Positions 1-12,000 of a DNA stretch of 64,000 nt are shown here, piece after piece. The position numbers are program-made. Numbering within the stretch: the first letter of the stretch is position 1; each line of letters opens with the position of its first letter. This DNA is from Spirochaetota bacterium (lineage in GTDB: Bacteria; Spirochaetota; UBA4802; UBA5550). Location: assembly GCA_050298055.1 (NCBI GenBank), contig JBNKTL010000001.1, forward strand, positions 70,979 through 134,978, in the 5' to 3' direction.

Positions 1-3000
1 GGTGTGGGTAAAGGATCACTCTACAGGTATTTTAAAAGCAAGGAAGATCTTCTCACTGAACTCCTTTCAGAGAAATATGAGGAGATCATCAAGGAGTTCA
101 ATGCCATCTTTTCTAAGGAACCCGACCTGATCAGGCAGATTGAAGAGTTGATACGGTTCTGGGTAACATTCATTGAAGAGAACCATGAGGTATATACGCT
201 TATCCAGAGTGAGGCTATTACACAGAAAACCGGAAACAGGGACATGTTCTATGATTATGTTATCACTCATCTCCCCATGTTTAAGGAGAGAGTGGTTTCA
301 TTTAATATTGAGAAGAAGATCAAGACTACCAGCTTTTACAGCGTGTTCTACGGAATACTCGGATTTATTGACGGTGTGGTCTATAAATGGACACGAAACA
401 ACATGAACTACCCGCTCAGGGATGAAATCCCGATAATCCTGGAGGTCCTTTTCAACGGCTTCATTGGTGAAAACTGGACAAAAAAGAGATACTATCAACC
501 TGCAGAAAAGAGGACAGAGTAAAAACCTCTTCTCAGGCAGAGAGAATATCCACAGATACAAATTAACAACCAGCAATAATAAACAGGAGAACATCATGAT
601 TAAACGTATTCTAGACTCAAAGCAACCGGTAATTATCTATAATCCCCCAAAAGTATTCAGCATGGATTACTTCAGGGAGTGCTACCGGTCCGGGGCCCTG
701 CCTGTATTCGATTCTGAATTCTTCAGCAACAGTGAGATTATCTCAATACTGGAAAAAGTATCAACTGAGGAGTTTCTCTTTGGTATCAGGCTGAAGGTTG
801 ATAACAGGGAGCTCGTAGATTATCTGAAAAATACGGATATTCTCAATCTCGATGTGGTGATTTTTCACTACAACAACTCCGAGGAGCTGAACACTTTTGA
901 GTTTGATAACCCCAATTATAAACTTGTCCTTGAAGTTATTGATATTGATATTAATGACACACTGGAGAAACTCCTTCCCCACGCCCTTATTCTCAAAGGA
1001 AATGAGGCCCCCGGAAAGGTCTCCAAGTTTACATCCATGATCCTTCTCCAGTACTACCGGGAAAAAACGGAATTTCCCGTTATTATTCACGGAGGCGTAG
1101 GATTCCATACCGCACCCGGAATTTTTGCCGCGGGAGCAAGCGGAATTGTACTTGATAACCAGCTCTACCTCACAGACGAAGCGCCCCTGTCGGACAACTT
1201 CAAAGAGGTCATATCCTCTCTCAAGGAGAGCGACACACAGTTAATAGGGGACTCACTCAATCAGAAGTACAGGTACAGATTTTTCGCGAAGCTTGGAACA
1301 AAGGTGGTGAAAGACCTCAAGGAGGAGGAGAGCCGCCTGAAGGGAAACAGTGCCCAGGCTGACAAGCTCTACACAAAAATATGCGATAAAATTGAATCCA
1401 TGGATAACAGCAGCGCCAATACCCTTCAGAGCCTTTTCTACCTTGGCCAGGATTCTGTCTTCTCAAAGCATTTTGTCAGGGAGACAAAAAAACTTCAGCT
1501 GGTAATAAGAAACCTCTTCCTCTCTATAGGAGAAGCCCTTGAAAGCATCGATGAGTATGATCCCCTTGTAGCCGATTCGGAAATGGCAAAAGAGCATAAC
1601 ACGAAATACCCCATCGTTCAGGGACCCATGGCTAACATCAATGATAATCCCGAGTTTGCCAAAAAGGTCTTTGAAGCCGGCGGACTTCCCTTCTTTGCCA
1701 TGGGGAACCTCCCCGAAGACCTTGCGGACAACATATTAAAAAATGGTTCGGAATTGTTCGGAAATTTCGGAGCAGGGCTTATCGGAACCCCCGATATAAA
1801 CAGGTCATTTGAGGGACACCTGAAAAGTGTAAAAAAATACGGGGTCAAATTTGCCCTTATAGCAGTGGGGATACCCTCGTATGTCAATAAGCTTGAATCC
1901 GAAGGCACAAAGACATATCTTCACACGCCCGCACTCCAGATGCTTGAAAACGCTATGAACAATAACTGTAACAGGTTTATTTTCGAGGGGAAAGAGGCCG
2001 GGGGGCATATCGGGACACTGACCAGTTTCGTTCTCTGGGAGATCGGTATTGAGAAGCTGATCAATGAGCCTGATGAAGTTTTATCCAATAAATCCGTCCT
2101 CTTTGCAGGTGGTATAGCCTCAAAAACCGGATCGCATTTTATATCCGGCATGTCTTCGCCCCTTGCAAAAAGGGGCGTAAAGGTAGGTATACAGGCCGGG
2201 ACCCCCTATCTTCTTACGGAAGAAATTCTTGAGACCGGCGCATTAAAGAAGCTGTACCAGGACCTGCTTATAGAGAGAAATATTACAACCGTTATTGGTA
2301 AAACCGTCGGTCTCTCAACACGGACGGTCGTATCGCCCTTTTCTGAGAAAATGCTTGAGAAAGAATACCAGATGATAATGGAGAAAGTCCCCCTGGGCGA
2401 AAGGAAAGAGTATTTTGAAGGAAGAAATGTGGGGTCACTTCTTATTGCCGCCAAGGCATATATTCCGGATTTTAAGAAGCTCAAAGAAGCGGGAAAACTG
2501 GAATATATTAACTATAATGATGAAGACCACTATGAAAAGGGCAACTTCCATACGGGCGAATCCATAGCCTTCTTCAACAGCCAGATCAAAATAGAGGACA
2601 TTCATAACGCGTACTTTGAGGAAAAGAAAAACCTCTCCTCCAACCTGAACATGCTTGAAATATACTCCGGCGAAAAGAACGAGATCGCCGACGAGATCGC
2701 GGTTGTGGGTATGGCATGTACCTTCCCCGACGCGGACTCCCCGGAGAAATTCTGGGAGAACATAGTCTCAAAGAAATATTCAATAAGGGAAGTCCCCGTG
2801 GAGAGGTTTGACAATTCACTCTACTACAGTGAGGACAGAAATGAAGAAGACAAGTCCTATTCAAAGATAGCGGGAGTTATTGACTATTTTGACTTCGACT
2901 ACAAGAAGTACGGATATAAGAAAACAGAAGCAAAACACCTCTCCCGGTCACAGCAGATGATCCTGGATACTGCCATGAAGGCAGTTGACAACGCGGGATA

Positions 3001-9000: not shown

Positions 9001-12000
9001 CGCTCCTGCTGCTTCAACCGGGAAACCGGGGTCAGAGCAAACCGTTTCCCCGGCTGCCGGACAACAATCCGGTCCGGGAACTATAAGCAGGTTTGCCGTG
9101 GAGGCCGTAAAAACGAAGATGATCAGTGAAGAGAAAAATATCTTCGAGAACAAAACAATACTCGTCTCTCCCGATAAGCAGGGATTTTCCAAAAAGCTTA
9201 TTGCTGAAATTGAGAAGAGAAAGGGAAAGGCAGTTACCATTGGAAAGGGAAAGGACCATGAGATAAAATGTGACTTCAGCAAACTTGATGATGTTGAAAA
9301 CGCCGTGAGAACGGTCATTGAAAAACATCCTGAGATCAGCGGCTTCATACACCTTCTTCCCCTGGACAACTATTTCGGAAAGAGGGCCCTTAATGAGAAT
9401 GAAATAAATACCTCGGTAAAATCCCTCTTCATTATGGTAAAGGGACTCGCGGAGAAACTTAACGGACCCGGTTCAATTATTTCATCCCTCTCCTTTGACT
9501 CGGTAGTCTTTCCTTATACAGGAATGGATGCGGATATCCATCCCCTCTTTGCCGGAATAGGCGGTATGATGAAGACCATTAACAAGGAGTTTAAGGATAC
9601 GTTTGTGAAAATGGTGGATTTCTCATACAACGATCCGAAGAAAAACTCAGGAAAGATCATCGACCTCTATATGAGAGAACTCCTCTCGGGGGATACACGG
9701 GTAGAGACCGGCTTCCATAAAAAAGAGAAGTATGTAATTTCACTGAAAAAGAAGTCCCCTGAGAAGGGAGAGAGCCTGGTCAGGACCGGGGACACGCTCC
9801 TTGTTACTGGGGGCGCCAGGGGAATTACCTTTGAAATTCTGAAGGAGGTTGTGAAGAAGAACGAAAATCTCAGCCTCATTCTCCTTGGCCGAAGTGATAT
9901 CGAGGCCATTGACAGCGAATACCTGGCCGAAAGCGCCGACGAACAGTTTATCTTTAAATCACTCAAGGAGAAGATGAAGGGGTCAAAACCCCTTGAGATC
10001 AGGAAGGCCACGGAAAAAGCCCTTAATATTAAACAGACCCGGGCGAACCTGGAATTTCTGAGATCCCGGGGCGTAGAGACAATCTACCATTCCGTTGATG
10101 TCTCAAACCGGAAGGCCCTTGCGGATGTTCTCAAGGGACATGAGAAAATCGACGGTATCATTCACGCGGCAGGTGTGGAGATATCCAACTTCATCCCCAA
10201 CAAGGAACTCAGGACCTTCAACCTGGTCTTCGACACAAAGATCACCGGGATGATGAACCTTCTTGAAGTCCTTAAAGAGAGGGACTACAGGTTCCTCATC
10301 GGCTTTTCTTCGGTTGCCGCCAAGTTCGGAAATGAAGGGCAGATAGACTATTCCGGCGGAAATGACATGCTCTGCAAGATGATCATCAGGGAGAGCATCA
10401 GCAACGGCAAGAATGTCAAGATCTTCGACTGGACAGCGTGGAAAGATATCGGAATGGCCACAAACGAGACGGTTAAGAAGGTCCTCATTGAGAACGGGGT
10501 GGAACTCCTTCCCGTGGATGCCGGAGTCAATTTCTTCATGGAAGAACTTAACGACAGCAGCGCCCGGGAGGTGCTTGTTGCCAACACAATGCATGAATTT
10601 GATCCCGACGGGATCTTCCCCGGGGGCAGCGAAAAGGGGGAGAGCTCAAAATTCCCCTTCCTGGGAGAGAAGCTCGAGGAGAGAGACAATTCCGTTGTTT
10701 ACAGCAGAGTGCTTGATATTAAAAACGACAGGTTCCTTCTTCACCATGTCATAGACGAGGTGCCTCTCTTCCTGGGGTCCACGGGAGTTGAAACCATGGC
10801 GGAAGCCGCTGCAACTCTTGCAGGAGAGAGCCGGAAGGTCTTTGAAGTTACGGAATTTGAAATTCCCTACGGAATAAAGATACTGAAGGGAAGACCCAGG
10901 GAGATCCTGGTTGAGGCTGAAAAGGCCCCCGGTGATAAGGAGATGTTCAGGTGTACGATAACCTCTCAGTTCAGGAACACAAAGGGAGAAGTGATGGGCG
11001 ATCCCACATTTCACTACAGGGGGACCTACCGGTTCACGGAAAAGGAAAATGAGGAGATAAAAATTGAGATCCCGAAACTCCCCTCACTGGAATACCAGGG
11101 GGAAGCGGATGATATCATGTACCATCCCCAAAGGCTCTTCATGGATGACCTCTTCAAGACCATCGATGACATGGTTGCCTTTGACGGGAAGACACTTCTC
11201 ACAAAGTTCCATAACAGAAGCAGCAACAAGTACTTTAATCATATCAGTGACCCGGAGCTCCAGACAGATGCCATCCTGGTTGACGGGATGTTCCAGACCG
11301 GGGGACTCCTTGAATTTCTCTCAACAGACGAGGTGGTGCTTCCCTACAGGATCGGAAGCCTGAAGTTCCACAGGGACGTCAATACAAATGATGAATATCT
11401 CTGTATTACGGAAAAATCCTCAAGTGATGAGAAGACCAACAGGTACCAGCTGAAGCTTATAGACAGCCAGGGGAACCTCTTTATCTCCGTTGAAGATTTC
11501 GAGATGATACGTGTGGGGAAACTTCCCGGAGAGTTCCAGATCAGGGACAGGATCAGGATACTGGAAGACGCAAAAGTTAACTGAGAATTTTTTCTGTTAA
11601 GAGGCGAAACGATAACGTTTCGCCTCTTAACGATATAAATCGCTCCCGGAGAGAAGAGGGACAAAACGAAAGTAACCGCAGCGGGTAATCTTTAAACCTC
11701 TTTTCCTTTTGATTCCCTTCAGCATTCTTTGTGATCCAATTCCCACGGGGACAACAATAATGCCCCCGAGCTTCAGCTGTTTCTCCCAGCTTTCACGTAT
11801 CTCGTCCGTAGCGCCGGATATCGCTGATCATTGAATCCATATAAGTCTCAATTCGGGACACCGGGATGAATCCTCAATAATTTTCAACCTGATATTATCA
11901 ACTGTTCTCTTAAACCATACATGATTAACCCGTTTTCGTCAAATATTTCTGAAGGCGAAAAACATAACCGATAAGTCCCCCTATCAACCGTAGCGGGGCG

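Follow-up and report, generated by a model that had tools for sequence, protein, structure and literature searches.

Reviews place the phosphopantetheine arm of acyl carrier proteins (ACPs) on a conserved Ser, and Ser-to-Thr substitution serves as an inactivating control. Among Pfa-like synthases, Shulse and Allen 2011 (PMC3098273) describe Type S from Desulfobacterium autotrophicum HRM2 (YP_002604438), with the order ER-KS-CLF-AT-KS-ACP3-KR and a PPTase gene, and, given the lack of fabA/fabZ, propose it as the core synthase for fatty acids in that organism. Type R, reported there from Roseiflexus, Solibacter, Koribacter, and Elusimicrobium minutum, has the order KS-MAT-CLF-ACP(3-6)-KR, with a PPTase gene after it. 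Threonine is not mentioned in the main text or text supplement of that paper, and a search of open-access papers gave no report of a Thr attachment site. An earlier note on the DNA analyzed here, which proposed that phosphopantetheine is carried on Thr, did not refer to Types R and S.

The window, a 64,000-nucleotide stretch of a Spirochaetota genome, opens with the 3' part of an ORF (1..522, forward strand, as are all features below), a possible regulator with a putative TetR-like motif. An AGGAG at 585-589 lies upstream of a single open frame of 3662 aa running from ATG 596 to TGA 11584 (596..11584). Domain profiles and the order ER'-ER-KS-KS'-AT-KS-ACP2-KR-DH match its product to the uncharacterized Type S synthase of PMC3098273. 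Its KS1 groups with Desulfobacteraceae proteins (SH-aLRT 100); its likeness to the HRM2 protein is judged from domain order. Relatives from Desulfobacula, Desulfobacter, and Desulfospira all read DT at the carrier site.

Every catalytic domain of a full reduction cycle is present with its residues. Two FabK/PfaD-like enoyl reductase modules (596..2665; PF03060 twice, TIGR03151) come first, and the second retains the GGH histidine (H471; His in 87/87 homologues). By profile and alignment KS1 (2690..4090) has the full triad C905-H1041-H1077, conserved in 102, 102, and 103 of 103 homologues, respectively. In the chain-length-factor-like KS' (4133..5515) Cys1382 is mostly kept (Cys in 76/91 homologues) and both His are lost, their positions being A/G and Y. 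The malonyl-type acyltransferase (5573..6436; PF00698, TIGR00128) carries S1751, R1776, and H1857, each invariant in 128/128 homologues. The third KS (6773..8305), which had been called degenerate, aligns with a full triad (C2303-H2450-H2490, kept in 128, 129, and 126 of 129 homologues), excluding its assignment as a CLF. The ketoreductase (9794..10447; PF08659) holds K3215, S3239, and Y3252, each kept in 126/126 homologues, and the PKS-type dehydratase (10655..11524; PF21089, PF14765) holds H3384 and D3563 (His in 104/104, Asp/Glu in 103/104). The earlier claim of intact catalytic motifs is borne out.

ACP1 (8501..8704) and ACP2 (8777..8980) score 27.7 bits each against a PF00550 cut-off of 20.8, and both read LGIDTVKQ. 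The Thr residues are Thr2666 (codon ACC, 8591..8593) and Thr2758 (codon ACC, 8867..8869). In phmmer alignments against PDB the T of DTVKQ matches the Ser of the DS motif of E. coli-type ACP and of PigH, as the earlier note had it; this is the column of E. coli ACP Ser36, at the start of helix II. Both the profile score and the helix II site of PF00550 are therefore present, with Thr in place of the attachment Ser. A structure search with the ACP gave no fold match from a poor single-sequence model (pTM 0.56). All nine such ACP motifs in this genome are DT: two in the window gene, five on contig C53, and two on C146, a 606-base contig about 90% identical to the ACP region of the window gene. 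Because of this similarity, and because public contigs break across the ACP region of the synthase, the window gene may hold more than two ACPs.

Threonine predominates at this site throughout the family. A tally in the earlier note (531 T, 26 S, 5 other) agrees with our recount over the best 120 listed homologues, found with a Thr-type query, and the three sequences of this genome itself (565 domains: 535 T, 23 S, 7 other). Bias from that query had been feared, but three samples chosen blind to the site are still nearly all T. A sample drawn by DNA pattern gave 302 T and 6 S in 308 domains; a KS1-picked sample of 32 proteins (those of the best 120 matches with at least 50% identity, the remainder being mostly multi-module PKS) gave 87 T and 2 S; and a sample picked by the third KS gave 386 T, no S, and 4 truncated sites in 390 domains. 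The classic Pfa context has Ser in 246/246. In the KS1 tree a single branch (SH-aLRT 96) parts 28 Thr-type from 22 Ser-type sequences, and Type S and Type R form one clade. The residues D-1 and E+5 around the Thr are 100% and 99% kept; in E. coli ACP both are needed by PPTases, according to bioRxiv 2025.01.28.635281.

The few Ser sites have distinctive settings. Six Ser matches in VKQ context represent five loci; four of the six occur in short ORFs, 486-583 aa long, whose ACP frame differs (YPxxVF), and two sit in contig-edge ORFs. In six mixed Ser/Thr proteins the Ser copies are all terminal and, in the five clear cases, the most diverged copy, as for decay. The three copies of Ca. Heimdallarchaeum aukensis (Asgard, closed genome) read S,T,S, and Thr is therefore not indispensable in that archaeon.

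The sole PPTase of this genome lies on C53 beside the Type R paralogue, as reported earlier, and away from the Type S gene. Its predicted structure (pLDDT 95.9) finds its best fold match in the Sfp-PCP complex 4MRT, and model, profiles, and alignment indicate an Sfp-type two-domain fold with GxDxE and WxxKExxxK. Across 58 aligned PPTases the columns of Sfp D107, E127, K150, E151, and K155 are invariant, and those of E109 and W147 are at least 90% kept. Such a PPTase usually adjoins the synthase or is fused to it: of 119 Thr loci, 56 include a PPTase, even with flanks covered for only 75, and in the relatives G056, G059, and G082 it is near the Type S gene. Six of the best 120 homologues, instead of the four first counted, list a PPTase domain in-chain. 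Comparison of 57 Thr-locus with 20 Ser-locus enzymes revealed no PPTase residue diagnostic of Thr use. The best residues (D199, R148, and E146) occur in 74-88% of the former vs 10-30% of the latter, and D199 is missing from this genome's own enzyme; a single residue explaining Thr use was accordingly dropped. In a quick, poorly resolved PPTase tree, nine enzymes of Ser-type loci fall within the Thr group. Two Ser carriers on contig C37 are possible further clients of the enzyme, in line with the earlier note.

We consider it quite probable that these ACP domains carry phosphopantetheine on Thr. The site-blind samples, the tree, the fold and active site of the PPTase, and genomes whose only detected carriers are Thr-type all support this sequence-based proposal of the earlier note. 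The genome evidence suggests an arm on Thr, which would be a bond beyond the reach of standard enzymes. We hypothesize that the gene product is an iterative single-chain fatty-acyl synthase in which the Sfp-fold PPTase would move 4'-phosphopantetheine from CoA onto the hydroxyls of Thr2666 and Thr2758, AT would load malonyl onto the phosphopantetheine thiol, KS1 and/or the third KS would catalyze condensation, and KR, DH, and the FabK-like ER would carry out reduction. The malonyl AT is invariant and requires a carrier thiol. The Ser-to-Thr change probably occurred once, at the root of the clade of Types R and S and together with the DTVKQ context, with Thr retained alongside a cognate PPTase lineage travelling with the synthase. 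In most other genomes the synthase would act beside FAS II.

It seems unlikely to us that the Thr domains are instead unmodified pseudo-carriers, used for docking or as a scaffold, with the chain carried in trans by a free Ser ACP, or on CoA. Such a reading draws on two papers reporting that S36T prevents modification and acylation of E. coli ACP (PMC3340395, PMC13343975), and on the presence of free Ser carriers: among 50 sampled genomes with the synthase, 43 have a free AcpP-like gene and 36 have FabF. The genome under study has a free 80-aa Ser carrier on C37 (26 bits vs the PF00550 cut-off of 20.8), which is DltC/AmcB-like, lies within an NRPS/PKS cluster, and falls far below the AcpP cut-off. 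G059, the only closed family genome with the synthase, encodes a free Ser ACP that clears the Pfam cut-off (46.9 bits), along with a PPTase the size of AcpS. The C37 carrier contradicts the earlier statement that this genome has no free ACP over the cut-off, and the G059 carrier would do likewise for the closed genome named there, if the two are the same genome. However, no Ser carrier was found in four draft genomes that keep a PPTase. In the archaea G040 and G046 all PF00550 matches (two and three) are Thr domains of the synthase, whose own chain also contains the sole PPTase; in the bacteria G060 and G087 all matches lie inside the synthase and the single PPTase is of the same type, though PF00550 overlooks some carriers and missed three Type R ACPs of G087. 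Moreover, acpP is gone from unbroken sequence between rpmF and rnc in G060, G087, and the present genome, which represent three genera, and is found there in G056, G059, G082, and G090. The substitution is never to Ala or Val, Thr being the sole other residue with an aliphatic hydroxyl, and the arrays of 2-8 copies fit carriers. A CoA-based cycle would leave the invariant malonyl AT unneeded.

Use of the Thr with other chemistry, as a direct O-acyl ester or with a different prosthetic group, appears quite improbable. Absolute DTVKQ conservation shows selection on the residue and says nothing on the adduct, but the partner gene encodes a PPTase of Sfp fold that retains both its CoA/Mg columns and its catalytic ones, and KS active sites require a long thiol arm. 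Still less credible is that a Ser is supplied otherwise, whether the Thr codon is recoded or mistranslated or another Ser/Thr in the domain serves as the site. Two further Thr columns, -21 and +29, are as conserved as the site itself; however, Thr at -21 is invariant in Ser-type Pfa ACPs too and is therefore structural, and no other Ser is conserved (93/329 Thr domains have none, and the most Ser-rich column reaches 21%). Recoding is ruled out by the use of all four Thr codons across many phyla, seen again in the DNA-pattern sample. Finally, although an ACP array is a repeat that is hard to assemble, the very remote prospect of dead relics or sequence error is largely refuted by more than 1000 domains in four samples, nearly all Thr and including named cultured species such as Desulfobacula toluolica (WP_014958977.1), with catalytic residues intact.

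In this genome, which has lost acpP, acpS, fabF, fabH, and fabZ, the synthase may well be the best candidate for making membrane fatty acids de novo. That it is the sole source is not proven, because 14/43 family members without FabF and FabZ also lack this synthase, and we reject absence of FAS II as a stand-alone argument for essentiality. The earlier view that such synthases must be the fatty acid source is weakened by those relatives and by the frequency of AcpP and FabF among synthase genomes.

On balance we favor the view that this is the first natural Thr-linked phosphopantetheine. The carrier and its PPTase would then have arisen as a pair a single time, would go unrecognized by housekeeping AcpS, would have spread to about ten bacterial phyla, Thermoplasmatota, and Asgard archaea, and would in some lineages have replaced the standard fatty acid pathway outright, acpP included. 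Two homologue searches returned 3441 and 3666 matches, not all Thr-type; if our reading is true, the conserved-Ser rule is broken by a family that occurs in nature and numbers thousands of proteins. Labelling and pathway engineering would also gain a carrier and an arming enzyme orthogonal to the standard ones, and a possible failure of such synthases with Sfp or AcpS might be accounted for. Annotators would be cautioned against labelling DT carriers inactive, and sulfate reducers, Chloroflexota, and some archaea would have a likely source for their fatty acids.

Compared with described systems, the window gene shares the single-chain order ER-KS-CLF-AT-KS-ACPn-KR with the HRM2 Type S synthase. 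It differs in having a DH, which PMC3098273 does not list, and in lacking the adjoining PPTase gene. Type R corresponds to the C38/C53 paralogue of this genome and, unlike the window gene, has no ER in its chain; its 'CLF' domain keeps Cys-His-His (117, 120, and 120 of 120) and therefore looks like an active KS, and Type R proteins of Roseiflexus sp. read TT to TTTT at their sites. PfaA of the omega-3 PUFA synthases (TIGR02813; Types A and B) has in common with the window protein tandem ACPs, the TGY and LEADLGID frame, and a related KS1, but carries Ser in DSIKRVE where the window protein has Thr, forms a separate KS1 branch, and defines a model against which the window protein scores 919 bits, under the cut-off of 1010. 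The omega-3 PUFA synthases have a FabA-type DH (PfaC), whereas no PF07977 match for such a DH/isomerase partner was found in this genome. Sfp (4MRT) shares its fold and active-site columns with the C53 PPTase, as judged from predicted structure and alignment, but its known acceptor is Ser, and it reads GLSLPLD where Thr-locus enzymes mostly read GLxxDTR.

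The gene at 596..11584 on the + strand is a single reading frame of 3662 aa, to which Pfam and NCBIfam assign two FabK-like reductase modules, three ketosynthase (KS) domains, a malonyl-type AT, two ACPs, a KR, and a PKS-type DH; the Pfam domain search found no thioesterase domain in this protein. Both ACPs bear the motif LEADLGIDTVKQVE, with Thr codons (ACC) at 8591 and 8867, and in phmmer alignments this Thr falls opposite the Ser of DS in PigH and E. coli-type ACPs. Scanning all six frames of the source genome (G000) recovered nine such motifs, all DT, with two in the window gene, five in the second synthase on contig C53, and two on a 606-base orphan contig. 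The two DT ACP copies of that contig (C146, 1-606) are ~90% identical to window 8491-9021. Because public contigs break across the ACP array, the gene may in fact hold more copies, with a hint of perhaps four or more. Neighbors at window 12138-20944, which we take to be a transporter, a PAS/GAF sensor kinase, a TetR-like gene, uvrB, nadC, and a PIN-domain gene, look ordinary and none seems linked to the synthase.

An earlier note reported Thr at nearly all such sites among homologs drawn with a Thr-type query. This was borne out when the count was repeated (535 Thr, 23 Ser, and 7 other in 565 domains, with 17 of the Ser domains belonging to three classic PfaA proteins), and the predominance also holds in new samples chosen blind to the site residue. 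A DNA pattern allowing any codon at the site, followed by VKQ, matched at least 308 distinct sites across 124 GTDB loci; among the matches listed, 302 encode Thr (ACC 142, ACG 124, ACA 18, ACT 18) and 6 Ser. With VKQ replaced by the classic IKRVE context, the pattern matched 246 sites in 120 metagenome loci, all 246 encoding Ser. Proteins picked by the first ketosynthase (KS1; 32 of 120 matches, at least 50% identical) held 87 Thr and 2 Ser sites, four having no ACP region, and in 120 proteins retrieved with the third KS of a Chloroflexota member, 386 domains had Thr, none had Ser, and four were truncated. Matched records came from Desulfobacteraceae, Chloroflexota, Acidobacteriota, Actinomycetota, Elusimicrobiota, Myxococcota, Spirochaetes, Calditrichaeota, Thermoplasmatota, and Heimdallarchaeota. 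For KS1, a tree built by quick search from 28 of the 77 Thr-type rows and 22 of the 45 Ser-type rows, with one modular KS as outgroup, has a single branch parting the two types (SH-aLRT 96); FastTree with all 123 rows recovered this split less firmly (support 0.77). The simplest reading is one origin of the Ser-to-Thr change.

The source genome was also said to have no FabF, FabH, FabZ, or free ACP over the cut-off. The Fab absences stand, as a genome search found no FabA/Z, no FabF, and no FabH over the cut-off, while the ACP absence does not: contig C37 encodes two Ser carriers, one of which is a free-standing protein that scores above the Pfam cut-off. Positions 1-8402 of C37 form a PKS/NRPS cluster with a free DltC/AmcB-like Ser carrier, no PPTase (phosphopantetheinyl transferase) of its own, and one gene that is presumably asparagine-synthase-like. 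The genome has two carboxyltransferase genes. Across 50 synthase-bearing genomes (50 of 64 first chosen, completeness values not given), a free AcpP-like gene occurs in 43, a FabF-like gene in 36, and a FabA/Z domain in 29, so the Thr-type synthase is often an accessory pathway. With an AcpP-like gene this frequent, a free Ser carrier may serve the synthase in trans in the genomes that keep one. Four Elusimicrobiota (G001, G019, G038, G041; loci L010, L036, L065, L068) have AcpP and FabZ beside a Type R synthase and no FabF-like match at E 1e-90.

Within the source genome's own family, 7 of 43 genomes carry a Thr-type synthase, a Type R-like gene with an unreadable ACP is present in an eighth, and four of the six without AcpP over the cut-off have the Thr-type synthase. 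Fourteen (G053, G054, G057, G063, G065-G067, G083, G085, G088-G092), one of them closed, keep AcpP and a PPTase and have no FabF, no FabZ, and no Thr-type synthase, so some members of the family live without either route. PlsX is absent from all 43.

In some genomes the Thr ACPs are the sole carriers found. All PF00550 (carrier-domain) matches in archaeal drafts G040 and G046 are Thr domains of the synthase, whose C-terminal domain is the only PPTase, and in draft relatives G060 (94% complete) and G087 (98%) all lie within the synthase with a single PPTase of the same type, bearing in mind that PF00550 misses some carriers. Between rpmF and rnc, acpP is missing from unbroken sequence in G000, G060, and G087 and present in G056, G059, G082, and G090. 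A PPTase retained with Thr clients alone is the strongest indirect evidence for Thr modification.

Thr-type synthases appear intact in residue counts from 131 proteins, where n varies because Type R has no ER or middle KS and KS domains were filtered by identity. The Cys/His/His residues are kept in 102, 102, and 103 of 103 proteins for KS1 and in 128, 129, and 126 of 129 for the third KS; in the middle KS, Cys persists in 76 of 91 and both His are gone. AT Ser/Arg/His (128/128 each), KR Lys/Ser/Tyr (126/126 each), DH His (104/104), and ER His (87/87) are invariant. The third KS (window 6773-8305) has the full triad in nearly all members, Type R included. Judged from sequence, no substitute Ser elsewhere in the Thr ACPs could serve, since 93 of 329 domains contain no Ser and no column exceeds 21%. 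In six mixed proteins the single Ser copy always sits at an array end, and in five it is clearly the most diverged copy.

The one PPTase of the source genome lies directly 3' of the C53 synthase, and its structure model, which is confident (pLDDT 95.9), best matches the fold of the Sfp-PCP complex. Among 58 such PPTases the columns of Sfp D107, E127, K150, E151, and K155 are invariant and E109 and W147 are at least 90% kept; we take these to be catalytic residues. A PPTase is present in 56 of 119 Thr loci, flanks being available for only 75, and in eight cases it is the C-terminal domain of a reading frame at least 1500 aa long. Loci L026, L067, and L080 (Heimdallarchaeota and an unclassified archaeon) hold a complete synthase with fused PPTase. 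In a tree, Thr-locus PPTases group together (4 label changes vs 18 when shuffled), and the group, which is unresolved, also holds nine from Ser loci; one Thr-locus row is of ordinary Sfp type, and the alignment yielded no residue diagnostic of Thr-locus versus Ser-locus enzymes.

Several observations weigh against Thr modification, including the frequent retention of AcpP, the Ser carriers on C37, and the 14 family genomes described above. E. coli ACP S36T is neither modified nor acylated, according to passages of PMC3340395 and PMC13343975. In the closed genome of Ca. Heimdallarchaeum aukensis the ACP sites read Ser, Thr, and Ser, and because its protein is nested within the Thr clade of the KS1 tree, the Ser sites are two reversions, which shows that the system can use Ser. 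Its locus has duplicated segments (KS-AT, PPTase, and downstream genes).

We nonetheless regard attachment of 4'-phosphopantetheine to the Thr of Thr-type ACPs as quite probable. Most likely, a cognate PPTase would place it on the Thr hydroxyl, AT would then load malonyl, and the acyl chain would cycle through KS, KR, DH, and ER, whose domains and residues are present; release to CoA via the third KS is a guess. Thr may serve to insulate the ACPs from housekeeping AcpS, or the ACP-PPTase pair may have co-evolved and become locked in. The Thr site is real and ancient; selection on it is strong, and the family that bears it is known but has not been studied. Thr-linked phosphopantetheine, if true, would contradict a textbook rule.

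Shulse and Allen (2011, PMC3098273) list two uncharacterized types, Type R (KS-MAT-CLF-ACP3-6-KR plus PPTase) and Type S (ER-KS-CLF-AT-KS-ACP3-KR plus PPTase), and suggest that Type S is the core synthase in D. autotrophicum; their text does not mention threonine. Searches of the open-access literature turned up neither a described Thr attachment site nor DTVKQ, and prior notice in subscription journals is possible. Locus L304 (genome G081, contig C22) holds a Type R-like synthase and PPTase at one site, adjoined by what are presumably carboxylase-like genes. PMC3098273 notes the same arrangement for Koribacter. By the descriptions in that source, the window gene fits Type S in domain order and the C38/C53 gene fits Type R, where the domain annotated as chain-length factor keeps its Cys-His-His triad, suggesting two active KS per chain.
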